The notes under the pieces are model-generated. The model made no database searches. It saw only the letters and a program-made list of their open reading frames with translations, and was not told where the DNA came from. Position numbers and translations under genes: made by a program. Of a stretch of 64,000 nt of DNA, positions 35,750 through 61,638 are shown piece by piece; positions within the stretch are counted from its first letter, which is position 1, and every line of letters begins with the position of its first letter. Origin of the DNA: an uncultured Acidimicrobiaceae bacterium (GTDB lineage: Bacteria > Actinomycetota > Acidimicrobiia > Acidimicrobiales > RAAP-2); contig CAVWMF010000007.1 of the NCBI GenBank assembly GCA_963756025.1, forward strand, positions 102,612 through 166,611, read 5' to 3'.

Positions 35750-35840
35750 ATCGTAAGGGCGGGCAATGGACGCGACGTAACGTGGCCGGCGCACGAAGAG
35801 GGAGCGGGCAACGGGACACCCGACATGGCAGAGTGGCGCT

Positions 35841-37238
35841 ATGTCTCCAGTAGAACGAATCTGGTCCGGTGGTAGCGAAGGTCCGCTCGCGGGGGTCCGG
35901 GTCGTGGACCTCGGTCAGTACGTCGCGGGACCCCTCCTCGGAATGTTGCTCGCCGATCAAGGCGCCGATGTCGTCCGGGTCGATCCGCCGGGCGGCCCCC
36001 GCTGGGACACGCCCGTCAATGCGGTACTCCTGCGGGCTCGCCGGAGCCTCGTTCTCGACCTGACGGACGAGAGGGATCGCGCCCGGGTGGAAGCACTGAT
36101 CGCCTCCGCCGATGTCCTCATCGAGAACTTCCGTCCTGGCGTCGCTGACCGGCTGGGGATCGGACCCTCCCTCGCGATGGCACGCAACGCCGGCCTGGTG
36201 TACGTGTCGCTTCCCGGCTTCGGGACCGGGGACCCTCGCGCCGGCGTCGCAGCGTGGGAGGGGGTGGTGATGGCGGCCACCGGGGCCTATGTCGTACCCG
36301 AGCGTGAGGAACCGGTGTTTTCGGCACTTCCCCTCGGATCGGTGTTCGCCGCGCTCGAGTCGGCTGTGGCCGTCGTCGGCGCGTTGATCGCCCGGGATCG
36401 GGACGGTCTGGGTCAACGCGTGCAGATGCCGCTCTTCGATGCGCTCTTCGAGGCGGGTGGCGCCGGTCCGGTGGTCGAACGTCCGGAACCATTCAAGTAC
36501 GGCGACTTGGCCCTGGCGTGGTACCGCTGCGCCGACGGTCGGTATATCGCCCTCGCCTCGGCATGGTTCCGTCATCTCGAATGGTTCGTACGGGCAGCGG
36601 GTTGTCAGGCATGGATCGACGAAGGACTCGTCGACTATGACCGGATGATGACCGAGCCGGCTGTGGTCGAGGAGGTGCGCGCCCGCCTCGTCCATCTCTT
36701 TGCCCAGCGGCCGGCCCTCGAATGGGAGGCGTTCGGGCGCGTCCACGGGTGCTCATTGGCCATGCCCAGGTCGCTGGCCGAATGGCTCGACGAGGACCAC
36801 CCTCTGGCTGCGGGAGCACTTGTCGACGGCGAGGATCCTCAACTCGGGCGGGTGCGCATGCCAGGTCGAGCCGTCCGGGTATCGGCGTTCCCCGACGTCG
36901 CCATCACATCCCGACGCCCGGCAGGGTCGGACGATGCTGAACTCCGGGACGCGTTCGGACGAATTCCTGGCCGAAACCACCGCCCCGGCGTCAGGCGGTC
37001 CGACGCCGCGATCGGCGAGCTCGGCCCCGCCGCTCACCGGCGTGCGGGTACTCGACCTGACCCGCGTGGCGGCGGCACCCACGGCCACCAAACTGCTCGC
37101 CCAGTTCGGCGCCGACGTCATCAAGATCGACACCGACCCGAGCGGCCGGGCGTTGGTGAACGAACCGATCGGGCACGACGTGGTCAACCGGGGCAAACGG
37201 TCCATCCGGCTCGATCTCTACGACCCGGCCGACCGTGA
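35841..37238 (+). CDS. family III (CaiB/BaiF) CoA-transferase domain. The last ~95 codons of the ORF are out-of-frame read-through over a second CoA-transferase domain.
   Basis: LAGVRVVDLGQYVAGPLLGMLLADQGADVVRVDPPGG and ADVLIENFRPGVADRLGIG mark domain 1. The domain appears to end about 'PAGSDDAELRDAFG' (~36960). After that the text turns Arg/Pro-rich, while another frame (ATG 36934) reads PPLTGVRVLDLTRVAAAPTATKLLAQFGADVIKID. Confidence 0.7.
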   Translation: MSPVERIWSGGSEGPLAGVRVVDLGQYVAGPLLGMLLADQGADVVRVDPPGGPRWDTPVNAVLLRARRSLVLDLTDERDRARVEALIASADVLIENFRPGVADRLGIGPSLAMARNAGLVYVSLPGFGTGDPRAGVAAWEGVVMAATGAYVVPEREEPVFSALPLGSVFAALESAVAVVGALIARDRDGLGQRVQMPLFDALFEAGGAGPVVERPEPFKYGDLALAWYRCADGRYIALASAWFRHLEWFVRAAGCQAWIDEGLVDYDRMMTEPAVVEEVRARLVHLFAQRPALEWEAFGRVHGCSLAMPRSLAEWLDEDHPLAAGALVDGEDPQLGRVRMPGRAVRVSAFPDVAITSRRPAGSDDAELRDAFGRIPGRNHRPGVRRSDAAIGELGPAAHRRAGTRPDPRGGGTHGHQTARPVRRRRHQDRHRPERPGVGERTDRARRGQPGQTVHPARSLRPGRP

Positions 37239-38122
37239 GGTACTCGAGCGCGCTGCTCTCGACGGCCGACGTCGTCTTCCAGAATTTCACACTCGGTGTC
37301 GACCAGCGGCTCGGCATCGACGAGTCGTCGGTACGCCAGGTCGCCCCCGACGTCGTCTACACGTATCTCAACGCCTACGGCACCGAGGGCCCCTGGGCGG
37401 ACGCTCGCGGCTATGCCGACCTTCTCAACTGCGCCACAGGGATCAGCGAACGCACGATCGGCGATGTCGAGCTCGCCAGCGGTCACCCGCTCCTGGCGGT
37501 CGACCGTCCCCGCTGGCCGTTCACTGACTACGCAGCGGGAGCGCTCGGCGCCTTCGCCACCATGCTCGGGCTGTTGCAGCGCGGGCGGACAGGGATCGCG
37601 GCGCGCGTCGAGACCACGCTGGAGCGTGCAGCGGCGCTGGAGCAGGTCATCTACGCCCTCGATTACGTCGGACGTGACATCGACGAGCCGCGTGGCGACG
37701 CGCCCGGTTGGTCACCGCTGCAACGCCTCTATGCGACCGCCGACGGAACTGTCTTCGTGGGCGCGGCCGTTTCCCAGGGCGGTGACCTGCTGAAGGCCCT
37801 CGGTGCCGATGTCGTGGAGAACCTCCCCGATGCGTTCGCCGGGACCAGTACGCAGAGCGTCATCGATGCTCTGCGTGCGCTCGATATCGGCGTCCATCGG
37901 GTCGAACCGCCGGGGCGCCTCCTCGCCGACGACGGGGTCGCGGCGAAGGTTGGCCTGCGGGTCGAGGACTACTCCGAGACCAATGGGAGGGTCCTGATGG
38001 TGGGGCCGGTCGCCCGGCTGTCCCGCACCCCGTCGGTCGCCGGAGCCTTGGCCCGGTCCTTCGGCGGCAATTCCGAAGAAATCCGCCGCGAGATGGGTTT
38101 CGGCGCCGCCTCGTCGCCCTGA
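37235..38122 (+). CDS. family III CoA-transferase, C-terminal two-thirds of a second domain (frame-shifted relative to its own N-terminus)
   Basis: The GTG start overlaps the preceding stop (GTGA). It begins mid-domain at 'LLSTADVVFQNFTLGVDQRLGID'. The matching N-terminal third (…KRSIRLDLYDPADREVLER) is in a different frame at 36934..~37250. Confidence 0.7.
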   Translation: MRYSSALLSTADVVFQNFTLGVDQRLGIDESSVRQVAPDVVYTYLNAYGTEGPWADARGYADLLNCATGISERTIGDVELASGHPLLAVDRPRWPFTDYAAGALGAFATMLGLLQRGRTGIAARVETTLERAAALEQVIYALDYVGRDIDEPRGDAPGWSPLQRLYATADGTVFVGAAVSQGGDLLKALGADVVENLPDAFAGTSTQSVIDALRALDIGVHRVEPPGRLLADDGVAAKVGLRVEDYSETNGRVLMVGPVARLSRTPSVAGALARSFGGNSEEIRREMGFGAASSP

Positions 38123-38143
38123 GCTCCGATTCTCAGGAGCCGC

Positions 38144-39100: not shown

Positions 39101-39147
39101 CTCGCCGTACCTCGCCTCGAGCTCGCTGACGTAGGGAATGGTGACGA

Positions 39148-40308: not shown

Positions 40309-40781
40309 TCCTTCTCACCGTCTTTGATCGGACGGAATCGCGGTGTTGACATTTCCTCATTCACGTGCTCGAAGACGATGCGAACACGTGAGCCGATGCT
40401 GATCTCCTCGGGCTCGCACTCGATGATGTTCACGAGCATCCGGGCCCCTTCACCCTGGGTTCCGTCGAGCTCGACAATGCCCGACACATAGGGAACCACA
40501 GCCGCAAGGTCAGGGTGCAGGGGGTGGCGCACGATGGTGTAGCTGTACACCGTCCCCAGCCCCGAGAGCTCCACCCACTCGGCCTCAAAGCTCTGACAGA
40601 CATAACAGATCGGGTACGGCGGAAGACGGAATGTGCCGCAGTTGGTGCAGCGGGGCATGACCAGGCGGTCTTCGCGCGCCGCATCCCAGAAGGGCTGCGT
40701 CGTCGGGTCGGCGAAGGTTCGCTTCTGCATGGTCGGGAAGACCCCCTTGCGGAGCTCACCGAAGGAACTGGTTATCGTCAT
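40305..40781 (-). CDS. DUF35 Zn-ribbon/OB-fold protein
   Basis: 158 aa with a GGAGG RBS. The Zn-ribbon is 'CTNCGTFRLPPYPICYVC', followed by an OB-fold-like C-terminus (GTVYSYTIV...VSGIVELD). Confidence 0.85.
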   Translation of the reverse strand: MTITSSFGELRKGVFPTMQKRTFADPTTQPFWDAAREDRLVMPRCTNCGTFRLPPYPICYVCQSFEAEWVELSGLGTVYSYTIVRHPLHPDLAAVVPYVSGIVELDGTQGEGARMLVNIIECEPEEISIGSRVRIVFEHVNEEMSTPRFRPIKDGEKE

Positions 40782-40789
40782 TTGTCTGC

Positions 40790-42001
40790 TTACCTCCGTA
40801 GGAGTGTGCCGCCCATGGGCAGCAGTGAGGTTCCGCCGGTGACCAGAGCGATCTCAGCTCCGTCGACTTGATTTATTGCCGTGCCGCGCAGCTGCTCGAC
40901 CGCCTCCATGATGTGGCTCATGCCGAGGAGATACGCCTCCGACAAGTTGCCCCCGTGTGTGTTCACCGGGATGGAGCCGGTCTTCCAACGGATGTTGCCG
41001 TCAGCGACGAATGGGCCACCTTCGCCCTTTGCGCAGAAGCCGTAGTCCTCGAGCTGCATGAGAACCATCGGCACGAAGTTGTCGTAGATCAACGCGACGT
41101 CGACATCCTCCGGGCCGACGCCCGCCATCTCGTACATCCGGCGCGCCGGGTATCTCGACCCTGACGACACGAGGTCGTCCTCTGCCATCTGGAGCCACTT
41201 CCAATTGAGAGGTCCGGTCCGCCCGGGGCCACCGTGCGCCGAGCCCATGACATAGACCGGTGGGTGGCGCAGGTCCTTGGCTCGCTCGGCCGACACCGTG
41301 ATCGCCGCCACGCAGCCGTCAGTCTCGAGCGTGAAGTCGAAGAGGCACAGAGGATCGGCGATCATCCGTGCGTTGAAGTAGTCGTCCATTGTCAACGGGG
41401 TCTTCTTGATCGCCTTCGGACGCCTTGTGGCGTTGTCACGCGTCGAAATCGCAATTTCGGCGAAATGCTCGCGGGTGGTGCCGTACTTGTGCATGTGCCG
41501 CTTCGCGATCAGCGCCGCCGCGTGGCCGGGGCCCAACAACCCGTCATTGGCGGTGAAACCCATGTACGGAGAAGCGATGCCAAGGCCGGCGGTGCCATAC
41601 GTCAGCTGGGGTCCGTTCTCCGTCGCGACGGCACTCCCGCCAAGTCGACGATGTGCTTGCTGCACGGGGTAGGCCGTCACGACGCACGTTGCCATGCCGG
41701 CGTGGATAGCGGATGCAGCCAGGCCGATCGATGCGCCCGAGGCCCCGCCACCGCCCGTCGTGGTCGCGGTGTAGCGAACCTCGGGGACACCCAGTGCTGC
41801 GGCGACTTCCGCCGGCTCGAACGAACTCGCATACAGCGCGAAGCCGTCAACATCCTTCACGGTGAGTCCAGCGTCGTCGAGAGCGGTCAGGATTGATTTG
41901 CAGACGAGACTCAGCTCCGACTCCTGCGGATACGACTGCCCGCGCTTGTAATACTGGGTCCCGCCCACACCGACAACGGCGGCCTGATCCTTCATGGTCA
42001 T
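40790..42001 (-). CDS. thiolase-fold (SCP-x/lipid-transfer-protein-like) protein
   Basis: 403 aa with a GGGGGAGGA RBS. Motifs: AAVVGVGGTQYYKRG and NTHGGNLSEAY. No Cys is seen where thiolases carry the nucleophile (TTGGGGASGASIGLAASAI). Confidence 0.9.
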   Translation of the reverse strand: MTMKDQAAVVGVGGTQYYKRGQSYPQESELSLVCKSILTALDDAGLTVKDVDGFALYASSFEPAEVAAALGVPEVRYTATTTGGGGASGASIGLAASAIHAGMATCVVTAYPVQQAHRRLGGSAVATENGPQLTYGTAGLGIASPYMGFTANDGLLGPGHAAALIAKRHMHKYGTTREHFAEIAISTRDNATRRPKAIKKTPLTMDDYFNARMIADPLCLFDFTLETDGCVAAITVSAERAKDLRHPPVYVMGSAHGGPGRTGPLNWKWLQMAEDDLVSSGSRYPARRMYEMAGVGPEDVDVALIYDNFVPMVLMQLEDYGFCAKGEGGPFVADGNIRWKTGSIPVNTHGGNLSEAYLLGMSHIMEAVEQLRGTAINQVDGAEIALVTGGTSLLPMGGTLLRR

Positions 42002-42071
42002 CGCAAGGTCCTCCCCCTCGTGTTACATCCTGTCGTCATCGGGCGTCGTCCTTCCTGTTCCTCGTCGGCGG

Positions 42072-44501
42072 TCATCCCACGACATCCTTCGCCCGCAGGT
42101 CGGCGATCTCGTCCCTGCTGTAACCGAGCTCCTCGAGCACCGCATCGGTTGCGTTCCCACAGAGAACTCCTGCCTTGGCCTGCACGGTCGAGCGCGAAAA
42201 CCGTACGATAGGCGCCAATCGCGGGTGCTCGTCGAATATCGGATGCGTCACGTCGGCGAGGTAACCGCTGGCCCGTCCATAGTCGTCGCTCATCAAGAGT
42301 CCCTCGACGGGACCGGTGGTGACCGCCACGCATGCGACATCGGCTGCCGTCAAGTCCCGTTGCCATTCGTCTTTGCCCCGCCTGATGAAGACGCCGGCCA
42401 GAAGCTCGCACAGGCCGTCGTCGTTGGCCCGGCGGTCGGTCTCGGTGGCGAACCGGGGGTCGGCTCGGAGATCCACATATGGTGCGAGCGCCTCGGCGAG
42501 CTCATCCCACTCCCTCGGCTGCGGGGCCGCCAGGAACACCCACCCGTCGGCCGCGTCATAGATCCGGTACCGTGCTGCCGGCCCGCGCATCTCCGGACCT
42601 GCAGACAAACCACCAGCGGCGCCCGGGACATCGATGACATGGTCCGCCATGGCGTGAGCGGTCGAGAGCAGCATCGACGCCACCACCTGTTGGCCGCCGG
42701 CGCCGCGCCGGCGTGCCAGGAGTCCCAGGAGCGCCGCCGTCGCCACACCGAGCGCCCCGATGCCGTCGGCCGACGCATACTTCGTGGCGCTGGCCGAACG
42801 CAGGAGCATGCTGCGGGCCACGACCTCGTCGAAGCTGATCGAGGGATCCTGGGGGCCGGGCCCACCGAGATGAGCCGCCGCAATTCCTCCGGCCGCGCCG
42901 AAGCTCGGCGCGAAGGAGGCCCGATCACCGTATGGCCCCCCGATGCCGTACCCCGACCCGTTCACGTAGACGATATCGGGATTGATCTTCTGCAATGTCT
43001 CGAAGTCGAATCCACCACGCTCGGCCGCACCGGCCCGGAAGCCGTTCACCACCACGTCCGCCTGCGCCGCCAGCTTGTGCAGGATGTCACGGCCTTCCGG
43101 CGTTCGGATGTCGACCGCCACGCTTTCCTTGCCCTGCATGACCTTGCCGCCACCGATCTCAGGGAACTGTGGTACCTGGCGACGGATCGAGTCCCCTTCC
43201 AGCTGCTCGACCTTGATGACGCGCGCCCCGAGATCGGCCAGCATGGTCGGTCCGTAGGGCGCCGCATACTGCACGGCAAGCTCGAGGACGGTCACGCCCT
43301 CCAAAGGCGCCCGGACTCGTGCGGACCCGTCCATGATCGGCCGGGGGTCCCAATCCTCTTGGTCGGCGTCGCCCATTCTCGGGGCCGGTCCCCGTACGGC
43401 CCCCGGGGTTGCCGTCATGCTGAACTGTGGGCCGGGCTGGCGCACGCTACCGGACCCGGGAACGGCGAGCTCAATGATGGAGCGGTCGTGCACGAGTTGC
43501 GGATGGTCGAGCGCCTCGGGCCCATCCCGATACAGTTCGGCCGTCACGTCGTGGTCGGCTTCGAAGACCGCCTGCCACTCGGCGAGGGTCCGGTCCCGCA
43601 CCCCCTCGAGCATCCGCTGCATCAACTCCTCGCGCTGCGCCTCATCCTCGAGGATGGGGATTCCCTCCCACTTCGGGTCGGTCAGCATCCAGCCCAAGTC
43701 GAGTGTCCGCATGAACGACTCGAAGAGATGCGGTCGATTTTGCGCGAACTGCAACCAGCGCCCGTCCTTGGTCTGGCCCACCAAGAGCCGATAGACAAAA
43801 TGGTGCGACGTGGCCGGCGCCGTGACGAATGCCTCAGGCCATCTTGTGGCGACCAGGTACGTGTACCACGACGACGACGCTCCCTCATGGATCGTCACCG
43901 CCTGGGCCAGATTCGTCTCGACCCACTGCCCTCGGCCACTCTGGTCGCGCTCGAGCAACGCTGAGAGGATCCCCTGGAGCGCCCCGTGCGTGGCCGCGAA
44001 CGTGCACCACGGAGTGGTGACGAAGGGGGGTCGCCCGCCAGGGCTCATGCCACTGAACGACCCGTAGACACCGAGAACGGAGGCCACCACGGCCTCGTAT
44101 CCTTTGAGGTGCGCCCAGGGCCCCCGCCGGCCGAAACCAGTGACGGACGTGTACACGAGCCCGGGGTTGACCGCCTCCAACGCTTCGTAACCCAGGCCCA
44201 GCCGATCTGCGACACCGGGACGGAACGTCTCGATCAGCACATCGGCGCCGGCAGCGAGGGAGCGGACGCGCGCAATGCCCTCAGGTGTACCGAGGTCCGC
44301 CACGACGCTCCGCTTGCCCCGCCCGAAGAGGGGAAACGCCCGCTGCTGACGTAGCCGGCTTCCGCCCGGAGGTTCGACCCAGATGACATCGGCGCCGTAG
44401 TCGGCCAGGGTCTGGCTGACTTGAGCTCCGACGCGGTCAGGCGAGAGATCGACGACGCGCACGCCATCGAGCGGCCCGCTCGCTTGTTCTGACACTGCCA
44501 C
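42072..44501 (-). CDS. two-domain (tandem) family III CoA-transferase
   Basis: Track ORF runs to 44651. GTG 44501 with GGAGGAGG upstream gives VAVSEQASGPLDGVRVVDLS. The second domain starts at 'APLEGVTVLELAVQYAAPYGPTMLADLGARVIKVE'. Confidence 0.9.
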   Translation of the reverse strand: MAVSEQASGPLDGVRVVDLSPDRVGAQVSQTLADYGADVIWVEPPGGSRLRQQRAFPLFGRGKRSVVADLGTPEGIARVRSLAAGADVLIETFRPGVADRLGLGYEALEAVNPGLVYTSVTGFGRRGPWAHLKGYEAVVASVLGVYGSFSGMSPGGRPPFVTTPWCTFAATHGALQGILSALLERDQSGRGQWVETNLAQAVTIHEGASSSWYTYLVATRWPEAFVTAPATSHHFVYRLLVGQTKDGRWLQFAQNRPHLFESFMRTLDLGWMLTDPKWEGIPILEDEAQREELMQRMLEGVRDRTLAEWQAVFEADHDVTAELYRDGPEALDHPQLVHDRSIIELAVPGSGSVRQPGPQFSMTATPGAVRGPAPRMGDADQEDWDPRPIMDGSARVRAPLEGVTVLELAVQYAAPYGPTMLADLGARVIKVEQLEGDSIRRQVPQFPEIGGGKVMQGKESVAVDIRTPEGRDILHKLAAQADVVVNGFRAGAAERGGFDFETLQKINPDIVYVNGSGYGIGGPYGDRASFAPSFGAAGGIAAAHLGGPGPQDPSISFDEVVARSMLLRSASATKYASADGIGALGVATAALLGLLARRRGAGGQQVVASMLLSTAHAMADHVIDVPGAAGGLSAGPEMRGPAARYRIYDAADGWVFLAAPQPREWDELAEALAPYVDLRADPRFATETDRRANDDGLCELLAGVFIRRGKDEWQRDLTAADVACVAVTTGPVEGLLMSDDYGRASGYLADVTHPIFDEHPRLAPIVRFSRSTVQAKAGVLCGNATDAVLEELGYSRDEIADLRAKDVVG

Positions 44502-47532: not shown

Positions 47533-50016
47533 ATGGCGCGTCAGGATACGCGCTGGATCGGGGACGAAGGTATCGTGCGCCAAGCGCTGAGTGATCTGAG
47601 GGTTGTCGAGCTCGGGGTGGGTTTTGCCGCGGGATGGTGCGGCAAGGCCTTTGCCGACCTCGGTGCCGATGTGCTGAAGGTGGAGTCGCCCGAGGGCGAC
47701 CCGCTCCGGGTCGACACCGGGCTCTTTGCGCACCTGCATACCAATAAGCGGAGTGCCGTCGTCGATGTCAATCCGGCGTCTGTCGCCTCTCTCCTGCCAT
47801 TCCTCGACGGCGTTGATCTCATCATCGAGACGCCCGGCTTCCGCAGCCTCGCTGACTGGGGCATCGACCGTGACGAGTTCATAGCGGGCACGCGCGGTCT
47901 GACGGTCGCTGCGATCACGGGCTTCGGCGCCACGGGCCCCTACGCCGGATATGGGTGGAGTGACCTGATCGCCCAAGCATTCAGCGGAACGATCGTCATG
48001 GATCAGCGGGGTCCGGTCAAACTGCCGATGTCACTCGGCGAGGCCGCGGTCGGGCATACGGCGGCACTCGGCGCACTGGCCGCGGTGTTGCGTGCCCGCG
48101 CGACCGGCGTGGGTGCGTTCCTCGACTGCTCCGCCGTGGAGGCACTGGCCGCCAGCCCGGCACGGATCTCGCGCTATCTGGGATGGGAGTACAGCGGACG
48201 GGCGGAGACACATCAGGCGGCGCCGACAAGCAGCGACACGCTCCTTCCGCTCGGGGTTTTTCCGTGCGCCGACGGCTACGTGGCCATGATGATGACGACG
48301 CAGCAGCTTCCCGAAATGCTCACCGTGCTCGGGAGCGATGACCTCATTGCGGCGTTCGCACGGCCGGATGCCTTCATGCGGACCGAGACGAAGGAGGTCC
48401 TCGACGGCGTGCTCTATCCGTGGCTGCTCGAACGGACGCGCCAGGAGATCACGGACATCGCGCAGGCCGCGGGGTGGCCCGTCACCCCGGTCAACGAGCC
48501 TGCTGAGTTGCTCGAGGCCGACCATCTCCACCAGCGAGGCTTCTGGGTTCACACCAATGACGACGAGCTCGGCCAGTTCCTCCTCCCGGGTGCGCCCTAT
48601 CGGCTCACCGAAGGCGGCTGGAAGCTCCGGCGGAATGCGCCACGTCTGGGCGAAGGTAACGCTCTGGCCCGGGCAGGCGATGTGCAGGCACCGCCACCCC
48701 CGATCGCTGTGCCCGACCCCGATGCACCACCGCTCGGGGACCTGCGCGTCTTGGACCTGACCACTGTCTGGTCGGGTCCTTACCTCACCTCTCTTCTCGG
48801 TGACCTCGGCGCCGAAGTCATCCGCGTCGAGACGCCGCGTGTGTTCCCGCCCACCACGAAGGGATACGTCCCGCGTCCGGAAACGAACATGGTGCTCGGC
48901 GCGCTCGCACGATTGTACGGTCCGCTTGCGCCGGGACGGGAGGATCGGCCCTACAACCGCCATGCCATGAACAATTCATTGGCGCGGGGCAAGCGCTCAT
49001 GCACGCTCGATGTCCGTATTCCCGAACAGCGTGAGATGTTCATGCGCCTCGTCGCCGTCAGTGATGTGCTGGTCGAAAATCTCAAATCAACGACACTGCA
49101 TCAGATGGGCATCCACGAGACCGAGCTGTTGAAGGTAAATCCGCGCATGATCGTCCTCAGGCTGCCGCCCGCCGGTCTCTCCGGAGACTGGGCTCACTAC
49201 ACGGGTTTCGGCGGTCAATTCGACGGCCTCACCGGTCTGACCACCCTCATCGGGCATCGGGGTACCTCGCTGACCGAATCGCCGTCCACCCAGCACATGG
49301 ACAGCGTCACCGGACCCGCTGGAGCATTTGCGACCCTCGCCGCGTTGCACCACCGAAGCGCCACCGGGCGCGGTCAAGTCGTGGAGCTCGCCCAGAGCGA
49401 AAACCTGTTGGCTGAACTCGGTGATGTCTTCGTGAATCTGCAGCTCGGCACCGCACCGAGAAAATTCGGCAATCGTGACCCGCACGTTGCGCCACAGGGC
49501 ATGTATCTGTGCGCTGACGGGTCCTGGCTGGCCATCACGGTCCACAGCGATGACGCCTGGCAAGGCCTCACGAAGGCGCTCGGACGCGCTGATCTCGCAG
49601 AAGATCAACGGCTCGTCGACTGCGCCGGAAGGCAAGCGGCGCACGACGAGATTGACGAAGCAATCGTCGCGTGGACGGCAACAGTGGAGTCCCAAGCCGC
49701 GTTCTCCGCCCTTCAGGACGCAGGGGTCGCAGCGGCGCCGGTCGGATCAGACGCCACGCTGGCATCGGATCCGCACATCGCATCCCGGCAATGGATCCGG
49801 CCGCTGACCAGCCTTGACGTCGGCACCTACAACCATTTCGGACACGCATTCCGTGGCATCCCGATGGCATGGGAACGAGGTGCGCCGACTCTCGGCCAAG
49901 ACAACGAGTACGTGTTCAAAAAGATCCTGGGTGTCAGCGACGACGAGTACGAGCGCCTCGTCTCGTCCGGGGTCGCGACGAACGACTACGTGGATCGGGA
50001 CGGCAACCCTTACTGA
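47533..50016 (+). CDS. two-domain (tandem) family III CoA-transferase
   Basis: Track ORF starts at 47434. ATG 47533 (GGAGAA upstream) gives MARQDTRW...LSDLRVVELGVGFAAGWCGKAFADLGADVLKVE. The second domain starts at 'PPLGDLRVLDLTTVWSGPYLTSLLGDLGAEVIRVE'. Confidence 0.9.
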   Translation: MARQDTRWIGDEGIVRQALSDLRVVELGVGFAAGWCGKAFADLGADVLKVESPEGDPLRVDTGLFAHLHTNKRSAVVDVNPASVASLLPFLDGVDLIIETPGFRSLADWGIDRDEFIAGTRGLTVAAITGFGATGPYAGYGWSDLIAQAFSGTIVMDQRGPVKLPMSLGEAAVGHTAALGALAAVLRARATGVGAFLDCSAVEALAASPARISRYLGWEYSGRAETHQAAPTSSDTLLPLGVFPCADGYVAMMMTTQQLPEMLTVLGSDDLIAAFARPDAFMRTETKEVLDGVLYPWLLERTRQEITDIAQAAGWPVTPVNEPAELLEADHLHQRGFWVHTNDDELGQFLLPGAPYRLTEGGWKLRRNAPRLGEGNALARAGDVQAPPPPIAVPDPDAPPLGDLRVLDLTTVWSGPYLTSLLGDLGAEVIRVETPRVFPPTTKGYVPRPETNMVLGALARLYGPLAPGREDRPYNRHAMNNSLARGKRSCTLDVRIPEQREMFMRLVAVSDVLVENLKSTTLHQMGIHETELLKVNPRMIVLRLPPAGLSGDWAHYTGFGGQFDGLTGLTTLIGHRGTSLTESPSTQHMDSVTGPAGAFATLAALHHRSATGRGQVVELAQSENLLAELGDVFVNLQLGTAPRKFGNRDPHVAPQGMYLCADGSWLAITVHSDDAWQGLTKALGRADLAEDQRLVDCAGRQAAHDEIDEAIVAWTATVESQAAFSALQDAGVAAAPVGSDATLASDPHIASRQWIRPLTSLDVGTYNHFGHAFRGIPMAWERGAPTLGQDNEYVFKKILGVSDDEYERLVSSGVATNDYVDRDGNPY

Positions 50017-50368: not shown

Positions 50369-51514
50369 ATGAAGCTGGACCTTCTCTACGAAGTGCAAGC
50401 CCCCAAACCGTGGCCGGACAAGCCGTATCCCTACAATCAGCGCGAGGCGGAACAGGCCGCCTACTTCGAGGCGATCGAGCAGATCAAGTTGGCCGACAAG
50501 CTCGGGTTCGGCACCGTCTGGGTCGTGGAGCACCACTTCCGGATCGAGCGGTCGCACATGCCGGTGAACGACGTGTTCCTCGCCGCCTTGTCACAGGTCA
50601 CCGACCAGATCCGCCTCGGCTTCGGTGTGACGCTCACCCCGAGCAAGTTTCGCCACCCCGTCCACACCGCGGAAACGGTCGCTGCCGTCGACCTCCTGAG
50701 CCGCGGACGTGTCGAGTGGGGCACTGGGCGTTCGATACCGCACGAGCAGAAGGCATTCGGCGTGGACCCCGAAACCAGCCGTGAGTCGTGGAAGGACGCA
50801 ATTGAGGCGGTGGTCGCCATGTGGGAACAGGAGAAGTTCAGCTGGGACTCCGAGTTCATGAAATTTCCCGAATTCCCGTCCTACGAGGGCGACACGCGCT
50901 CCATCACGCCCAAGCCCTACCAGGACCCGCATCCGCCGGCGTGGATGGCGGCAGTCAGCCCCGGCAGCGTCGAGCTGGCCGGCCAGCTCGGCCTGGGCAT
51001 GCTCGCTCTCACGATCATGCAGCCGGTCGACGAGCTCGCACGGCGCATCAAGATCTACCGCGAGGCCTCCGCAAACTGCACCGAACCTCTGACGCGGGTG
51101 AAGAACACCAAGGTCGCGCCCTACACGCTTGTCCACTGCGCCGAAGACATGGAGCGCGCCGAGTCATACGGGATATGGGACTCGGTAGGCTGGTGGTACG
51201 ACCACATGGCCCAATTCCTCATTGATTGGGAGCTCCCTCCCAACGTGTCCGCAGAAGAGATCGAGAAGCTCTTTCCCCGGCTCCGTGAGACGCAGGCCGG
51301 CAAGGTCGATCCGAAATTCTTCAACGACCAGGACATGGTCATCGTCGGCAATCCGGAGCAATGTCTCGAAAAGCTCGCTCGCTACCAGGACATCGGCTGT
51401 GACTCGGTCATCTGCTATGTGCAGTTCGGTCAGCTCCACCATGACCAGGTGATGGAGTCGATCGAGGTTCTCGGGAAGCACGTGATCCCGACACTCGAGC
51501 AGCGCTCCAGTTGA
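50369..51514 (+). CDS. LLM-class (luciferase-like) flavin-dependent oxidoreductase
   Basis: 381 aa with an AGGAG RBS. Motifs: MKLDLLYEVQ, LGFGTVWVVEHHF, IRLGFGVT, GRVEWGTGRS. Confidence 0.9.
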   Translation: MKLDLLYEVQAPKPWPDKPYPYNQREAEQAAYFEAIEQIKLADKLGFGTVWVVEHHFRIERSHMPVNDVFLAALSQVTDQIRLGFGVTLTPSKFRHPVHTAETVAAVDLLSRGRVEWGTGRSIPHEQKAFGVDPETSRESWKDAIEAVVAMWEQEKFSWDSEFMKFPEFPSYEGDTRSITPKPYQDPHPPAWMAAVSPGSVELAGQLGLGMLALTIMQPVDELARRIKIYREASANCTEPLTRVKNTKVAPYTLVHCAEDMERAESYGIWDSVGWWYDHMAQFLIDWELPPNVSAEEIEKLFPRLRETQAGKVDPKFFNDQDMVIVGNPEQCLEKLARYQDIGCDSVICYVQFGQLHHDQVMESIEVLGKHVIPTLEQRSS

Positions 51515-52534: not shown

Positions 52535-53734
52535 TCACGGATCGGCGCTGTAGACGACTGCCCCACCGAAGTGCGGCGACGAATGGCAGGCCAGACCTAT
52601 GGAAGCTTGTTCACGTTGGCGAGCACCGGCTCTCCGGGACAGCTGGAGATAGCACTCGAGCATCTGCGGAATCCCGTGCATTCGCCCGTTGCCGAGCGCT
52701 CCACCGCCGGAGAGCACCGGCAGGGCATCAGGACGATCACTGTCGATGCCTCCATCCTCGATGAACCGGTGGGCTTCGCCTTGCGGACAAAGGCCCAGCG
52801 CCTCGAGCCAGAAGTAGACAAAGGGGGAGAAGCCGTCGTAGACCTGCGGGAGATCGACATCGCGGGGCCCTATACCGGCGCTCTCCCAGAGACGCCGTGC
52901 CGTCTCTTCCCCGACCCCCATGATGTCGTCGAGCGGCCAGTGAAGCGGCAGCCGGTTCGTTGTCGGACACCCCGTGGCGTATCCGGACACATACACGGGT
53001 CGGTTCGGGAGATCACGGGCCCGCTCGGCCGATGTAAAGACAAAGACGGCCGCGCCATCCACCGGAATATCGCAGTCGTAGCGACAGATCGGGTCGCTGA
53101 TCATTGGAGCCGAGAGATACTCGTCTCGCGTGAGGGGCTTGTCATGCCAGTACGACCAAGGGATTCGTGAACCATTTTTGCGAGCCTCGACGAGAACGGT
53201 GGCCATCGCTTCCCGACTGGCTCCGTAGCGTTGGAGGTATTCGTTGTAGGGAAGGGCGATCATGGAAATCGGCCCGAAGTAGCCCTGGGGCGCCGTCCAC
53301 TGCTGACCGCCCCGCGCTTCCCGCATGACATTGCCGTGATACGAGCCTTGCGGATTGTGCAGAGCACGGTGCATCACCACGTGGTTCGCCGCACCAGTGG
53401 CGATGGCATTGACAGCCAACGCCACCGCCCCGGGAATCTGACCGAAACCCTGGAATCCGGCGGCGTAGCGGGGGTTGATGCCGAGGCTCTGGGCCAACCA
53501 GTTCGCCGAGACCAGACTCACACCGTCCTCGGCGTCGTGTGAGCCGGCGGACGGGAAGAGGCTGCCCGTGACGAAGCCGTCCACCATGTCCACCTCGAGG
53601 CCGGCGTCACGGATGGCCGTGCGAGCCGTGTCCACCGTCAAGGCCCCCAGCGACCTCGCGTCATGTTTCACGACGGGACTGTGGGCATAGCCCACAACAG
53701 CCACGCGGTTTCTCGAGGCGAAGCGCGGGCTCAC
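52535..53734 (-). CDS. thiolase-fold (lipid-transfer-protein-like) protein
   Basis: Track ORF 52535..54319 is over-extended. GTG 53734 (GGAGGA upstream, GTGA overlap with the DUF35 stop) gives VSPRFASRNRVAVVGYAHS. No Cys is seen at the usual nucleophile position (FQGFGQIPGAVALAVNAI). Confidence 0.85.
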   Translation of the reverse strand: MSPRFASRNRVAVVGYAHSPVVKHDARSLGALTVDTARTAIRDAGLEVDMVDGFVTGSLFPSAGSHDAEDGVSLVSANWLAQSLGINPRYAAGFQGFGQIPGAVALAVNAIATGAANHVVMHRALHNPQGSYHGNVMREARGGQQWTAPQGYFGPISMIALPYNEYLQRYGASREAMATVLVEARKNGSRIPWSYWHDKPLTRDEYLSAPMISDPICRYDCDIPVDGAAVFVFTSAERARDLPNRPVYVSGYATGCPTTNRLPLHWPLDDIMGVGEETARRLWESAGIGPRDVDLPQVYDGFSPFVYFWLEALGLCPQGEAHRFIEDGGIDSDRPDALPVLSGGGALGNGRMHGIPQMLECYLQLSRRAGARQREQASIGLACHSSPHFGGAVVYSADP

Positions 53735-54153
53735 GTCCGATCCTCCAGGACGAATGCCGGCACCGCGACACCCGGCGCAATGTCCTCGAAAGCCACACGA
53801 ACCGCCCTTCCGAGGTGAAGGGCCTCTTCGGGGGCATCGAGGAGGCGGCCGATGAGGCGGAGTTCGGGCTGCTCTGCGAGTTCGACATCCACCAAGATGA
53901 ACGGCACTTCGAATCCCGGCAGAAACGATTGGCACACCACCGTCCACGACCTGACCGTTCCCCTTCCACTGACCGGTAGGAACGTGAACGCAGGCTCGGT
54001 GCTCCCGCAATGCGGGCACACCGTCCCCGGTGGGTGGGTGCGCGCGCCGCACACCGCGCACTGAGCCATCGTCAGGACGTGCTCGCGTGTCGCATTCCAA
54101 TACGGTGCGGAACGACCGTCCGGAATCGGCGTGACGCGAGAATCGACGCTCAT
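53731..54153 (-). CDS. DUF35 Zn-ribbon/OB-fold protein
   Basis: 140 aa with the Zn-ribbon 'CAVCGARTHPPGTVCPHCG'. ATGA overlap with the upstream CoA-transferase. Confidence 0.85.
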   Translation of the reverse strand: MSVDSRVTPIPDGRSAPYWNATREHVLTMAQCAVCGARTHPPGTVCPHCGSTEPAFTFLPVSGRGTVRSWTVVCQSFLPGFEVPFILVDVELAEQPELRLIGRLLDAPEEALHLGRAVRVAFEDIAPGVAVPAFVLEDRT

Positions 54154-55367
54154 GGTATGACCCCAGCTTCATGGAGTCCGGAGATATCGTCCCAGGTGTA
54201 ACCCAGTTCGGCCAATATGGTTTCCGTGTGCTCGCCATGTTCGGGTGCTCGCCGTAGCTCAGGCGGCGATTCATTGAATTGGACCGGCACCGCAGGCAGT
54301 CGGTAGGTCGGCACTCCATCGATCACGACGTCACCGATATACCCATTGGCCGCTACCTGTGGATCCTCGAGGAGCTCGCTGATGGACTGCACCGGCGCCC
54401 ACGGGGCATCGAGTCCTTTGAGAAGCTCTTTCCATTCGGCGAACGTCCGCCGGCCGAACTCCTCGTCCAGCAGCGCGACGCATGCGGCTGAATTTGATCG
54501 TCGGGCCGCCATGTCGATGAAGCGAGGATCATCAGCCAGATCCGGCCGCCCGATGATCCGGCAGAAATCGGACCAGTAGCGATCAGCTTCGAGAAAAACG
54601 AGTTGGATGTGACGGAGGTCTTTCGTGCGATAAGAACCGACGAGCGGATTGAAGCTCCTTTGCCGGCTGTCTGCCGGCGCTGGCGCCGGGTCATCGCCCC
54701 CGAGGGCAGCCAGGAGATCAGACGAGAGCGTCCACATGGCCGTGGCGAGCAAGGAGACATCGACGACGGAGCCCGTGCCGGTCCGGGTTCTTTCGAGTAA
54801 CGCGGCCGATATTCCGAAGGCCAGGGCCATCGCACCATTGCGATCACCCATCGCGCCCCGCTGCATGATCGGCTGGTCCCGCTCGGGTGGTGTGAGCACA
54901 TAAGCGAGACCGCCTCTGGCGAAGAACGCCGAAGAGTCGTAGCCGGCCTGATTGGCATCAGGACCTCTCACGCCGTAGCCATTGCCGCGCGCATACACGA
55001 GCGTGGGATACCGGCTTCTGAGAGTGTCAGCATCGAGACCGAGGCGCCCCAGAGCGGCGGGGCGCAAGTTGGTGAGGAACACGTCGGCGGATGCCAGCAG
55101 CTGATGGAGCACAGCCAATCCCTGTTCCTGCTGCACGTCCAGCGCAATGGACCGCTTGCCCCGGTTGGCCAACGCCATCGAGAGATTCACACCGTCGCGA
55201 TCGCTTCCGATCCCCTGCGACGCGAGACCGCGGTAGGGATCTCCCTTGAGATGCTCGATGTGCACCACATCGGCCCCCCAATCGGCCAGCAATGCTCCGG
55301 CAACCGGCACAAAGACCCACTCCGCGAGCTCGACCACACGAACGCCTTCGAATGCACCCTTACCCAT
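54150..55367 (-). CDS. family III (CaiB/BaiF) CoA-transferase, single domain
   Basis: 405 aa. Motifs: FEGVRVVELAEWVFVPVAGALLADWGADVVHIE and GAMGDRNGAMALAFGISAALLERTRTGTGSVVDVS. Confidence 0.9.
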   Translation of the reverse strand: MGKGAFEGVRVVELAEWVFVPVAGALLADWGADVVHIEHLKGDPYRGLASQGIGSDRDGVNLSMALANRGKRSIALDVQQEQGLAVLHQLLASADVFLTNLRPAALGRLGLDADTLRSRYPTLVYARGNGYGVRGPDANQAGYDSSAFFARGGLAYVLTPPERDQPIMQRGAMGDRNGAMALAFGISAALLERTRTGTGSVVDVSLLATAMWTLSSDLLAALGGDDPAPAPADSRQRSFNPLVGSYRTKDLRHIQLVFLEADRYWSDFCRIIGRPDLADDPRFIDMAARRSNSAACVALLDEEFGRRTFAEWKELLKGLDAPWAPVQSISELLEDPQVAANGYIGDVVIDGVPTYRLPAVPVQFNESPPELRRAPEHGEHTETILAELGYTWDDISGLHEAGVIP

Positions 55368-58336: not shown

Positions 58337-59281
58337 TCAACCCGTCGCCGTGGCAGCCGCGTATTCATGGAGGGCCGGCACGACCTCCGCGAAAAGCCGG
58401 TCGAGGACCGGTCGCTGGTCCGCTCCTGCCGTTGCAGCGTGGAACACGAAATGACGGGCGCCTGCGTCGTAGAAGGCACAGAGTTTGGCCGTCACCTCGG
58501 ACGGAGTTCCAGCGGCGGCGACGCTGTCGATCATGCGGCTGAAATCCTGGTTGTACGTGCCGCCCATCGTTCGGGCCGCCTCCTCCCGGGCAATGTCGCC
58601 GTCAGGGTTGATATTGAGGAAGACCCAGACGCACCAGGAGAAACCATCGAGATCCCGCCCTGCTTCTCCGGCCGCGTTCTTGATGACGGCCACCGATTCG
58701 GCGTACCGGCGGGGCGAGTACATATAGGGGAACCAGCCGTCACCGAGTGTCGCGGCCCGTCGCATCGCCGGTTCCTTCCGACCGGCCACCACGATCGGGG
58801 GCCCGCCGGGCTGGAGGGGCGCCGGATGGATCTTCACATCCTCCATCGAGTAGTAGCGACCTTCGTGGGTGATCTCCGTGGCCGTCCACAACCGGCGAAG
58901 GAGAGGGATGATCTCGTTCGTCCGGCGGCCGCGCTCCTCGAGCGGGACGCCGACGGCCCGGAATTCTTGCGGATACTCGCCGCCGATCCCGACACCGAGC
59001 ATCAGCCGCCCGCCCGTGGCGCGATCGAGATCTGCGATCTGCTTTGCCACCAGTGCCGGCGGGTAGAGCGGGAGCAGGAGGATGGAGCAACCGACGATCA
59101 CCCGTTCGGTGACCGTTGCCAGCCGGGCCAGGCCGATCATGACCTCCGGGCTCGGGTTGCGCGACGCGATGTGCCCACCCACCCAGAGCGAATCGAGTTC
59201 CCGGGCCTCGAGTTCGTGCACCTCTCGAGCATCGCCGGCGGCGACGAGGCCGATCCGGATCTGGGAATCGGGCTCTGTCAT
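58337..59281 (-). CDS. LLM-class oxidoreductase, probable F420-dependent (Rv2161c-like) type
   Basis: Track ORF 58337..59695 is over-extended. ATG 59281 (ATGA overlap with the upstream stop, GGGAGG upstream) gives MTEPDSQIRIGLVAAG...LDSLWVGGH...GRLMLGVGIGGE, 314 aa. Confidence 0.85.
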   Translation of the reverse strand: MTEPDSQIRIGLVAAGDAREVHELEARELDSLWVGGHIASRNPSPEVMIGLARLATVTERVIVGCSILLLPLYPPALVAKQIADLDRATGGRLMLGVGIGGEYPQEFRAVGVPLEERGRRTNEIIPLLRRLWTATEITHEGRYYSMEDVKIHPAPLQPGGPPIVVAGRKEPAMRRAATLGDGWFPYMYSPRRYAESVAVIKNAAGEAGRDLDGFSWCVWVFLNINPDGDIAREEAARTMGGTYNQDFSRMIDSVAAAGTPSEVTAKLCAFYDAGARHFVFHAATAGADQRPVLDRLFAEVVPALHEYAAATATG

Positions 59282-61638
59282 TGGAGAACCTCCCTGAGCT
59301 GCTCTCGTTCGCCGGCCGAAAGCGAGAGGATCTTGTCCAGGATGTCGTCGTTGTCCTGACCGATCAACGGCCCGTGACGGAGCTCGACATCGAGATCGGA
59401 GAACAACCAGGGCTGCCGCATCACGCGGGTTCGCCCGATTTCGGGATGCTCGATCTCCACGAACACCCCGCGGGCTGCGAGATGCGGATCGGCCGCCAGC
59501 ATTTCGTTGGTCATCACCGCCATAGCGGGAACGCCCGCAGCTTGCAGGGTGGCGAACGCACCGAGCGATTCCCGCTGCGAAGTCCACGCCGTGATGGCTT
59601 CGTCGATCTCGGCGCGTGCGGCCCGCCGGGCATCCGCCGTCGGATACTGCGCCAGCCAGGCGTCGCGCCCGATCACCGAACAGAGAGCCTTCCATTCGGC
59701 CTCCTCGGTGATCGCCACGGCTACCCAGTCGTCAACTCCGGCAGAGGGGTAGACGTCGTGTGGGGCGTGCGCGCGATGACCGTTCCCCACCCGGATCTCC
59801 CAGGGAACGCCCAGCTGTTCGGCGAGGAGCGCATCGGGTGAGGAGGCCGCAGCGACCTCCCGCGATGCGAGGTCGATGTGCTGGCCCTCCCCGCTGCGGG
59901 CTCGATGCAGCAAGGCGGCCAGCGCTGCCACCGCGAGTGCGCTACCGCTGCGAAAGTCGGTGGACTCCCCTATCTCCGACGGTGGGCCGTCGGCGTAGCC
60001 TGTCTGCTCAGAGAGTCCCCCCGTCGCTCCGAAGATACTTGCGAGGCCGGCAGCCATGGCCTCGGGCCCGGTGGAGCCGTTCGCCGATGAGGAAATGACG
60101 ATCAGATCAGGACGTTTCGCCAGGAGGCTTGTGGCGTCGAGACCGAACCTCGCCATGACGCCTGGACGGAAGTTGTCGACGACGACGTCGACGTGATCGA
60201 CGAGGCGGTGTGCCAGCGCCAGTCCTTCCGTTCGGGAGAGATCAACCTGGAATGACCGCTTGGCGAGGTTCAACTCGTTGAAGTTCGGGGAGCGGTTGAT
60301 GCCCCCGTAGTCCGCCAGGAAGCCCCGCCGTGCCGGGTCGGGTCGGCGCGTCGATTCGACCTTGATGACCTCCGCCCCGAGCAGGGCCAGCAGACAAGTC
60401 CCGTAGGGGCCGGCGGCGGCCCAGGTGAAGTCCAGGATGCGGACGCCCTCCAGAGCGCGGCCAGGAGGAAGGCGCGGCTTGGCTGTCGCCTCATCGGAGA
60501 AACCTTCGGAACCACCCACTCCCCGTGCCGATTTGATGTCAATCGGAGTGGCGGAGAATTTGTAGGGGGGGCCTGGTACGACCATTCGCCCACCGGCGCC
60601 ATCGTCGATCTCGCGGAAGAAGCCGCGATGGCGGAGCTGCGGCGACGCCAGGAGGTCCGACGGCTTCGCATACGCGCCGACAGGGGCACCAAGCGGAGCC
60701 AATATCTGCACCACCTCGGCCTTGTCGTGCGCTCGGCACCATGCCTGCATCGCGGTTGCAGCCAGCTCGGCGTTCTCCATCCGGGCCGCGGCGGTCGCTA
60801 TCCGTTCATCGGCGAGCTGTCCGGCCTCGGGTGAGGCCGCCAGGGCATCCCACTGATCCGGTGTCATGCCGACGAGCTGCACCCAGCCGTCACGACAGTG
60901 CATCATGCCCATGAACCCGTAGCGACCACCGTCTCGATGCATCACTATGCCGTCGTTGTTGAAGCGACTGAGTCGGGTGCGATTGAGGGTCAGCTCCGCC
61001 TCCTGGATGGAGACGTCCACGCGTTGCCCCCGACCCGTCCGAAGCCGGTCGTACATCGCCACCAGGGCGGCGACCGCGGCGTTCCAACCGGCGTCGTACT
61101 CGGCGAGTTCGGCGCCGGCCTGGAGAGGGGGTCGTTCGGGAAACGCCTTGAAACCGGGGCCGCTCGGCAGGATCGATCCCTCGCCGCCTGCGTGGAAGGA
61201 GACCAGGTGACTGGCACGGTGCCTGGCATACGGCCCGGTGAGACCGAACGGAGTGATGACCAGTACCGTCGTCGCCTCGTCCAACCCCTCCTGGGCGTAC
61301 CAGGTGGGGTCGTCGGTGACGACCAGGTCGAACCCCGCGGCCACATCCTGGCGCTCCGGGGTCTGTTCCGGCGCTTTGGAGACGGTCCGGCTCGCCTTGC
61401 CAGTGTTCAAGTAGAGGAAGAGCCCTCCGGGTTCGCTCGGGGAAGCATCGCTTCGCCGCGGCCCCCACAATCGAGACGGGTGGCCACCGGGGGGCTCCAC
61501 TTTCACGACCTCGGCCCCGAGGTCACTCATGACCTTTGCGCAGAATGAGGCGGCAACGCCGTCGGCTAGCTCCAACACCCGCCAGCCGGCCAGCGCTCCG
61601 TTCGAAGAACCTTCCTCCGCGTCATTTCGGTTAGGCAC
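59278..61638 (-). CDS. two-domain (tandem) family III CoA-transferase
   Basis: 786 aa with a GTG start and GAGGG upstream. Domain 1 is LAGWRVLELADGVAASFCAKVMSDLGAEVVKVE. Domain 2 is ALEGVRILDFTWAAAGPYGTCLLALLGAEVIKVE. Confidence 0.9.
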   Translation of the reverse strand: MPNRNDAEEGSSNGALAGWRVLELADGVAASFCAKVMSDLGAEVVKVEPPGGHPSRLWGPRRSDASPSEPGGLFLYLNTGKASRTVSKAPEQTPERQDVAAGFDLVVTDDPTWYAQEGLDEATTVLVITPFGLTGPYARHRASHLVSFHAGGEGSILPSGPGFKAFPERPPLQAGAELAEYDAGWNAAVAALVAMYDRLRTGRGQRVDVSIQEAELTLNRTRLSRFNNDGIVMHRDGGRYGFMGMMHCRDGWVQLVGMTPDQWDALAASPEAGQLADERIATAAARMENAELAATAMQAWCRAHDKAEVVQILAPLGAPVGAYAKPSDLLASPQLRHRGFFREIDDGAGGRMVVPGPPYKFSATPIDIKSARGVGGSEGFSDEATAKPRLPPGRALEGVRILDFTWAAAGPYGTCLLALLGAEVIKVESTRRPDPARRGFLADYGGINRSPNFNELNLAKRSFQVDLSRTEGLALAHRLVDHVDVVVDNFRPGVMARFGLDATSLLAKRPDLIVISSSANGSTGPEAMAAGLASIFGATGGLSEQTGYADGPPSEIGESTDFRSGSALAVAALAALLHRARSGEGQHIDLASREVAAASSPDALLAEQLGVPWEIRVGNGHRAHAPHDVYPSAGVDDWVAVAITEEAEWKALCSVIGRDAWLAQYPTADARRAARAEIDEAITAWTSQRESLGAFATLQAAGVPAMAVMTNEMLAADPHLAARGVFVEIEHPEIGRTRVMRQPWLFSDLDVELRHGPLIGQDNDDILDKILSLSAGEREQLREVLQ

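Follow-up and report, generated by a model that had tools for sequence, protein, structure and literature searches.

We analysed a 64,000-nucleotide stretch of contig CAVWMF010000007.1 (assembly GCA_963756025.1; called the window below) from an uncultured Acidimicrobiaceae bacterium, in which three intact genes, designated A, B, and C, each encode a family III CoA-transferase with two complete modules in one chain. These proteins are probably single-chain versions of a two-subunit family III CoA-transferase of the BbsE/BbsF type, and the alignments and structure models support an organisation in which each chain combines a single Asp-dependent catalytic site with a partner module that lacks the nucleophile. 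The layout as such is already known, the asymmetry from BbsEF and the fusion from DddD, and A, B, and C are new, uncharacterised members.

Catalytic residues of the two modules

The original prediction, made from the DNA letters of the window, had listed three intact two-domain open reading frames (ORFs), one single-module gene (D), and one broken tandem locus (E), and this inventory was borne out by ORF translation and Pfam searches (Table 1). A, B, and C each gave two full-length matches to PF02515 (CoA_transf_3) with E-values of about 1e-143, and the gathering score of this family was exceeded by both halves of the three proteins, by both parts of E, and by D. Three-frame translation and tblastn with B as the query revealed two frameshifts in E, near 36880-36895 and 37250-37257; this locus is a pseudogene or else the carrier of two sequence errors. 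The two modules are joined by linkers of 25 to 40 residues. The short Pro/Ala-rich linker that had been proposed for all the fused proteins was found in A (AGDVQAPPPPIAVPDPDAPP), and the linkers of B and C turned out to be less rich in these residues. Most orthologues of A begin about 14 codons further in than the start codon used here, and among the matches listed there were 120 of them, of about 813 residues each. The C-terminal module (C-module) of A also has an insertion of about 40 residues after its second strand (VFPPTTKGYVPRPETN...DRPYNRH; A residues ~435-476), which AlphaFold predicted with low confidence in part and in which many residues are invariant among the orthologues (P435, P439, P440, G444, P449, Y462, D471, R472, N475, and R476).

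The nine modules were aligned with MAFFT L-INS-i to CaiB, Frc, and YfdE of Escherichia coli (NC_000913), to the BbsEF chains of PDB entry 9fn0, taken from the phmmer alignment, and to MCR of Mycobacterium tuberculosis (100% identical to 1x74_A over 360 residues). The column of Asp169 of Frc and CaiB, which is also that of Asp156 of MCR, lies at the start of helix alpha-7; PDB titles name Asp169 of Frc and CaiB and Asp175 of Rv3272 as residues that were mutated. As had been proposed from an alignment by eye, this column holds Asp in D and in all four C-modules, and no N-terminal module (N-module) has Asp there, the residue being Glu in A and C, Thr in B, and Ser in E. Every motif quoted in the original prediction is present at its given place, and the EYD motif of C, which had been left ambiguous, could be settled: the alignment and the helix register in the AlphaFold model put Glu180 at the Asp169 position, and Asp182, the D of EYD, lies two residues further into helix alpha-7 (judged from the G-R-G-Q spacing and the AlphaFold helix ends) and is thus out of register with the canonical Asp. 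In BbsEF the same column reads Asp in chain B and Tyr in chain A of 9fn0. The column of MCR His126 reads Ser, Tyr, Ser, and Trp in the N-modules of A, B, C, and E, respectively; since the His126/Asp156 pair is absent from all of them in the alignment with the 1x74 sequence, a reading of the N-modules as MCR-type racemases was rejected.

The asymmetry extended to the orthologues of the three genes. The C-module Asp was present in all 40 orthologues of A (57-94% identity; D590), in all 112 of B (50-100% identity; D579), and in all 102 of C (49-100% identity; D561). The corresponding N-site was occupied by Glu (23), Leu (10), Gln (5), or Ser (2) in the A family, by Ser (90), Thr (18), Ala (3), or Gly (1) in the B family, in which it is never acidic and sits in a conserved P-W-C-S-F motif, and by residues including Glu (34), Tyr (25), Asp (20), and His (8) in the C family. 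A divergent set of 132 fused proteins, composed of A, B, and C together with 129 representatives of clusters at 50% identity, had the Asp in every C-module and, at the N-site, residues including Glu (27), Gln (21), Ser (16), Asp (13), Ala (12), Tyr (10), His (9), and Leu (6). When these 132 proteins were split into halves and aligned with the references, most positions of the Rossmann and CoA-binding motifs proved to be kept in both halves. Conservation was confined to the C-modules for Asp169, Asn96 (Frc numbering), and a G-N..A-P..Y loop, and the C-terminal helix was absent from the N-modules. At the positions diagnostic of the two halves, BbsE has the N-module states and BbsF those of the C-module. 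Judged from these sequences, the contrast between an invariant C-module Asp and a variable N-site is a property of the family and not a product of chance.

The few divergent proteins with Asp at the N-site (for example, P0150, P0194, P0218, and P0247) have CaiB-like 'ADF' or 'ADY' motifs there, and such proteins could, by sequence, be active at two sites. Asn96 and the G-N..A-P loop are nonetheless missing from most of them. With only 13 Asp-keeping sequences, the correlation with the N-site Asp gave a Fisher p of 0.03 for Asn96 and was not significant for the loop residues.

The N-modules have diverged little more than their partners, the mean pairwise identity of N- and C-modules being 0.61 and 0.67 in the A family, 0.585 and 0.584 in the B family, and 0.54 and 0.63 in the C family. 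By this measure conservation is almost as strong in the N-modules as in the C-modules, and "degenerate" is not to be taken as decaying. The original prediction had proposed one catalytic and one degenerate or regulatory site per polypeptide; of this, the single Asp-dependent site was supported, and degeneracy in the sense of decay was not. In the N-module of the C family, His144, Glu153, Pro158, Gly160, Pro167, Arg169, Pro171, and Asp182 were invariant among the 102 orthologues, Gln173 and Gly175 were invariant in a 64-sequence subset, and His149 and Asn186 of the same pocket were kept in 100 and 94 of the 102 sequences, respectively.

Relatives, predicted structure, and alternative readings

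BbsEF resembles the fused enzymes in having two paralogous family III subunits with the nucleophile on only one of them (adduct on Asp178, chain B/D); it differs in that its subunits come from separate genes, whereas A, B, and C are each a single ORF. In module BLAST searches, the N-modules of A and C grouped with chain A of 9fn0 (108-137 bits) and their C-modules with chain B (162-210 bits). The best matches to PDB chains agreed with this, the N-modules of A and C being most like chain A (E-values of 2.5e-32 and 5.7e-28) and their C-modules most like chain B (E-value of 4e-44). The identity of BbsE and BbsF to these modules was only about 30%. PDB entry 9fol is entitled 'BbsEF, D178-CoA adduct', and Asp178 belongs to chain B by count from the phmmer alignment; the adduct thus marks the BbsEF subunit that resembles the C-modules as the catalytic one. 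In the naming of the Joint Genome Institute (JGI), C-module fragments are called 'BbsF subunit'. The comparison with BbsEF-type heteromers drawn in the original prediction was in this way supported for A and C. One protein with that JGI name, P0389, was considered as a natural split form of C and rejected, since its N-module lies in another frame and the gene is a frameshifted, truncated fused gene.

The N-modules of B and E grouped with each other (137 bits) and were closest to SUGCT, FAR, and MCR-like proteins. That of B aligned end to end with MCR (1x74; E-value of about 1e-28), which has the same fold; the C-module of B was closest to D and Frc. The homodimeric enzymes Frc, YfdW, CaiB, YfdE, SUGCT, and Mct share with the fused proteins the fold, the motifs, and the Asp at the start of helix alpha-7. 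Their active sites lie at the subunit interface, and they have two equivalent ones, whereas the fused proteins have one canonical site. D is an ordinary enzyme of this homodimeric type. None of the NCBIfam equivalog models scored (formyl-CoA transferase, succinate-glutarate CoA-transferase, succinyl-CoA:mesaconate CoA-transferase, L-carnitine CoA-transferase, CoA:oxalate CoA-transferase, and mesaconyl-CoA isomerase) reached its cut-off, the best scores being 104-279 bits against cut-offs of 413-750. Literature searches yielded no paper describing the BbsEF structure or fused family III enzymes.

Natural unfused counterparts were encountered on plasmids. A tblastn search against plasmids returned 786 records, and in 39 of them one place covered most of A. 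Rhodococcus qingshengii (NZ_CP147922) and Salipiger abyssi (pPABY7) each have an N-like gene followed by a C-like gene with a 4-nucleotide overlap; in both pairs the product of gene 1 has Glu and that of gene 2 has Asp in the Asp169 column, and gene 2 is 36-39% identical to the C-module of A or C. The proposal of one catalytic site per polypeptide therefore finds the invariant C-module Asp and variable N-site, the adduct-bearing chain of BbsEF, and the unfused pairs all in agreement. In R. qingshengii the pair lies in an operon (34437-43455) of an aerobic actinobacterium that runs through two acyl-CoA dehydrogenases, the CoA-transferase pair, a MaoC hydratase pair (N and C halves), a thiolase, an OB-fold protein, and two short-chain dehydrogenases, one of which is annotated as mycofactocin coupled. 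Judged by its gene content, this operon encodes every enzyme needed for a bbs-like beta-oxidation.

The fusion itself has a presumed precedent in DddD of Marinomonas sp. MWYL1 (UniProt A6W2K8), a protein of about 830 residues with two tandem CaiB-like modules. Its tandem layout and catalytic Asp602 were reportedly described by Todd et al. in 2007 and Alcolombri et al. in 2014. Asp602 would presumably fall in the second module and is, by number, compatible with Asp590, Asp579, and Asp561 of A, B, and C. The original prediction had allowed that the fused architecture might prove to be a well-characterised enzyme class, and in part it does: the asymmetry is seen in the BbsEF structures, and a tandem enzyme of this family, DddD, has been characterised. 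The neighbourhood of DddD differs, in that no BCCT transporter gene dddT and no dddB, dddC, or dddR stands beside A, B, or C in the window, and so does the setting, which here is a soil or peat actinobacterial lineage. A fused gene of Pseudooceanicola has no ddd neighbours, and two further plasmid loci are not ddd clusters. Ten Lys-rich representatives of fused-protein clusters carried generic cluster names only. DddD is a type III acyl-CoA transferase that performs CoA transfer and then cleavage (PMC8163506). For a subset of the CaiB/BaiF paralogues of SAR202, the best Swiss-Prot hit is the Marinomonas DddD, and lyase functions have been speculated for these paralogues (PMC5395668).

The proposal that a tandem fusion encodes a covalent pseudo-dimer of two family III modules gained support from AlphaFold2 models built with the orthologue alignments. 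The mean predicted local distance difference test score (pLDDT) and the predicted template modelling score (pTM) were 84.6 and 0.91 for A and 91.3 and 0.94 for C, values at which the two modules of a chain are positioned with confidence as a single rigid body. In Foldseek searches against PDB, chains D and B of BbsEF ranked first with a template modelling (TM) score of 0.87, normalised by target, followed by YfdW, SUGCT, and Frc, with BbsEF chain A lower down; each half matched family III chains at TM scores of 0.8-0.87. The PDB copy searched contains no solved fused chain, all 35 sequence matches having at most 456 residues. From the models we infer an intramolecular interlock of the two modules as two rings.

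Several observations weigh against the BbsE/BbsF-type reading. The loss of the N-site Asp is not universal, since 13 of the 132 divergent fused proteins keep it, and B and E are not specifically BbsE/F-like. The ORFs scanned in the window include no glycyl-radical enzyme, acyl-CoA dehydrogenase, or enoyl-CoA hydratase, and without the latter two a complete bbs-like route is not encoded there. The G-N..A-P..Y loop, which is confined to the C-modules, may sit in the small domain facing the N-module pocket, and the invariant polar residues of the C-family N pocket look, from their conservation, like a working site and not like a mere scaffold. The interlock and its intramolecular nature are read from pTM only, which a domain-swapped dimer would fit equally well.

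Such a dimer, in which the N-module of one chain interlocks with the C-module of another, is nevertheless rather unlikely in our judgement. BbsEF crystallises with four chains (A-D, 9fn0), a monomer run of AlphaFold cannot separate cis from trans pairing, and linkers of the length found here speak for the swap; on the other side, AlphaFold puts both modules of one chain together with the high pTM values given above, and the linker of C is itself predicted confidently, at a pLDDT of about 85 or more. We are similarly doubtful of the N-module as a second functional site of another kind, whether a regulatory ligand or CoA site or a lyase, hydratase, or isomerase working on the CoA thioester made by the C-module. 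The purifying selection on the N-modules, almost as strong as that on the C-modules, their retention of most Rossmann-type and CoA-binding motif positions, and the conserved P-W-C-S-F motif at the site in the B family would all be in keeping with it, as would the two-step reaction of DddD and the lyase functions speculated for the SAR202 paralogues. However, the residues conserved differ among the A, B, and C families, which argues against a common second chemistry, the structural role of the N-module in the shared interface would also explain the conservation, the MCR-type His126/Asp156 pair is absent, and no experimental datum ties the lyase step of DddD to its N-module. The invariant His144, Glu153, Arg169, Gln173, and Asp182 of the C family, with His149 and Asn186 kept in most of its members, speak for such a function. 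That its N-module, and perhaps those of other families, was repurposed as a second active or ligand site built around His144, His149, Glu153, Arg169, Gln173, and Asp182, acting on or sensing the CoA thioester made 400 residues downstream, is a thought to which we give a low probability; if it were true, the single chain would be bifunctional, joining CoA transfer to a lyase, isomerase, or hydratase activity, and the lyase step of DddD could be explained as well.

It is highly improbable that both modules are CoA-transferase sites, with Glu170 of A, Asp182 of C, or Ser/Thr167 of B serving as a substitute nucleophile in the N-module. Asp182 is indeed invariant (102/102) and only two residues from the canonical column, and Glu or Asp occupies the N-site in 27 and 13 of the 132 fused proteins, respectively. 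Yet two residues out of helix register would point Asp182 some 200 degrees away, 17 of the 40 orthologues of A have Leu, Gln, or Ser instead of Glu170, and the B family never has a carboxylate at the site. An Asp169-to-Glu mutant of Frc is reportedly essentially inactive. The N-modules also lack Asn96 and the G-N..A-P loop, both of which are found with the Asp in every C-module. The Asp169-to-Glu mutant of Frc has been made and crystallised (1vgr).

There is hardly any chance that the long ORFs are an artefact in which an error of assembly or sequencing has merged two neighbouring genes. The window does contain the frameshifted tandem locus E, and some database relatives are frameshifted fragments, but there are hundreds of collinear proteins of about 800 residues in many phyla, and fused coding sequences (CDSs) are annotated on finished plasmids of cultured isolates, as exemplified by the single fused CDS of 2382 nt in Bosea sp. 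NBC_00550. This explanation was rejected on the strength of the fused ORFs in hundreds of clusters and on finished isolate plasmids. How common such fusions are had been raised as a question along with the original prediction; they turned out to be widespread, 131 of the best 150 representatives of 50%-identity clusters having 700-899 residues. Fused enzymes of family III abound in Acidimicrobiia, other Actinomycetota, Chloroflexota of the Dehalococcoidia/SAR202 type, Desulfobacterales, and some Proteobacteria.

Genomic neighbourhood of the CoA-transferase genes

The context of the fused genes shows both likeness to and difference from the bbs operon. Thiolase/DUF35 partners adjoin B and D, as BbsAB do in the bbs operon, and by their Pfam matches the thiolase-like and DUF35 genes downstream of B are a BbsB/BbsA-like pair, for which the NCBIfam BbsA and BbsB models gave weak scores (29 and 98 bits, respectively, their cut-offs being 250 and 750). 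The context of BbsEF differs from that of A, B, and C, for which the window has no genes for benzylsuccinate synthase, acyl-CoA dehydrogenase, or hydratase and is oxygenase-rich, in an actinobacterial host of the Acidimicrobiia type. A and C are each followed directly by a gene for a luciferase-like monooxygenase, and this pairing recurred in one relative of C. The neighbours of 49 related fused loci included another CoA-transferase (14 loci), a thiolase (11), a luciferase-like monooxygenase (8), and DUF35 (5), so that the conserved neighbourhood amounts to a loose association only.

Among the ORFs scanned in the window were at least eight of the Amidohydro_2 family, three of Amidohydro_3, seven short-chain dehydrogenases, four P450s, and four luciferase-like monooxygenases, together with an aldehyde dehydrogenase, an FMN-dependent 2-hydroxyacid dehydrogenase, an epoxide hydrolase, an SMP-30/gluconolactonase-like gene, a Liv-type ATP-binding cassette (ABC) transporter, and IclR and TetR regulators. 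Such a gene content makes the window a dense catabolic island, and its paralogue make-up resembles the description of SAR202. The Liv-type transporter appears to be fused, with two ATPase domains in a 555-aa ORF and two permease domains in a 664-aa ORF. A UGSC-family protein (PF24696) adjoins a 365-aa ORF that has no Pfam match, amid amidohydrolase genes. The C-terminal half of a 524-aa protein is an APH/EcKL (ecdysteroid-kinase-like) phosphotransferase domain by its family match, and the N-terminal half of about 240 residues matches no family; the ORF of this protein overlaps that of an opposite-strand IclR regulator located upstream of C.

The best genome match was a metagenome-assembled genome (MAG) of an Acidimicrobiaceae bacterium from palsa, with a syntenic locus and 86% protein identity for A. 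In the closest relative, an Acidimicrobiaceae MAG (PMLV01000113.1), the corresponding region is syntenic at about 82% nucleotide identity and lacks about 3.9 kb (window 40071-44010) comprising the end of an Amidohydro_2 gene, the DUF35 and thiolase genes, and most of B, a 5' remnant of which is kept. This gap and pseudogene E suggest a fast turnover of CoA-transferase paralogues.

Table 1. Positions in the window of the CoA-transferase genes, of residues in the two modules, and of neighbouring features
Feature	Position	Strand	Description
Gene A	47533..50016	+	Fused family III CoA-transferase, 827 aa from the ATG chosen in the original prediction; two PF02515 stretches
Gene A parts			N-module ~aa 1-375; linker ~aa 376-400; C-module ~aa 401-827
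A Glu170	48040..48042	+	N-module residue (LGEAA) at the Asp169 column
A insertion	48835-48960		Insertion in the C-module
A Asp590	49300..49302	+	C-module; aligns with Frc/CaiB Asp169 and 9fn0_B Asp178; predicted nucleophile
Gene B	42072..44501	-	Fused family III CoA-transferase, second subtype, 809 aa
B Thr167	44001-44003	-	N-module residue (WCTFA) at the Asp169 column
B Asp579	42765-42767	-	C-module; predicted nucleophile
Gene C	59278..61638	-	Fused family III CoA-transferase, BbsE-like plus BbsF-like, 786 aa
C His144	61207-61209	-	Invariant, N pocket
C Glu180	61099-61101	-	N-module residue (LAEYD) at the Asp169 column
C Asp182	61093-61095	-	Invariant, N pocket
C Asp561	59956-59958	-	C-module; predicted nucleophile
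Gene D	54150..55367	-	Ordinary single-module family III CoA-transferase, 405 aa; one PF02515 match
D Asp175	54843-54845	-	Asp169 column of the single-module enzyme
Locus E	35841..38122	+	Tandem CoA-transferase pseudogene, B subtype
E reading frames	35874-36893, 36880-37257, 37253-38122	+	
E Ser167	36339-36341	+	N-site (LGSVF)
E Asp	37526-37528	+	C-module Asp (FTDYA)
Thiolase-like gene	40790-42001	-	With the DUF35 gene, directly downstream of B; Pfam Thiolase_C_1
DUF35 gene	40305-40781	-	Zn-ribbon/OB-fold; Pfam OB_ChsH2_C, zf-ChsH2
DUF35 gene	53731-54153	-	With the thiolase-like gene, directly downstream of D
Thiolase-like gene	~52535-53700	-	
Luciferase-like monooxygenase	50369..51514	+	Directly downstream of A; Pfam Bac_luciferase
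Luciferase-like monooxygenase	58337-59695	-	Directly downstream of C
APH/EcKL protein	62098-63672	+	524 aa
IclR regulator	61696-62565		Strand opposite to the APH/EcKL ORF
UGSC-family protein	6275-6829	-	PF24696
365-aa ORF	5151-6248	-	No Pfam match
Liv-type ABC transporter	21058-24716	-	555-aa and 664-aa ORFs

Proposed mechanism and significance

In the BbsE/BbsF-type reading that we favour, the two modules of one chain would fold into the interlocked ring pair typical of family III. The C-module would be the enzyme proper, its invariant Asp being predicted to attack the donor acyl-CoA and to pass through a mixed anhydride to an aspartyl-CoA thioester, from which CoA would then be transferred to the acceptor acid. 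The N-module, which has no Asp at this position, would be unable to run this chemistry and would act as the obligatory partner of the single active site. Fusion of the two would hold the modules at a 1:1 ratio and, in a cell with several paralogues, would determine which module pairs with which. The gene context suggests that the enzymes load CoA, without ATP, onto carboxylic acids supplied by neighbouring oxidative and hydrolytic enzymes (P450s, luciferase-like monooxygenases, hydrolases or decarboxylases of the amidohydrolase type, and short-chain dehydrogenases) and that the thioesters may then go to the thiolase/DUF35 cleavage enzymes. Judged from this context, ATP-free activation of carboxylic acids is the most likely role of the fused enzymes, and it matches the role proposed for the SAR202 paralogues (PMC5395668). 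To go by the sequences, the one feature that could prove new is the polar N-module pocket that the C family conserves so strongly.

Annotation pipelines call these proteins 'CaiB-like' or 'CoA transferase' and are silent on the single catalytic module. Recognising it corrects the number of 'CoA-transferase active sites' that enters models of recalcitrant carbon degradation built from genomes, and shows experimenters which Asp to mutate. The fused enzymes also lend themselves to the question of why an interlocked dimer retains a nucleophile-free partner.

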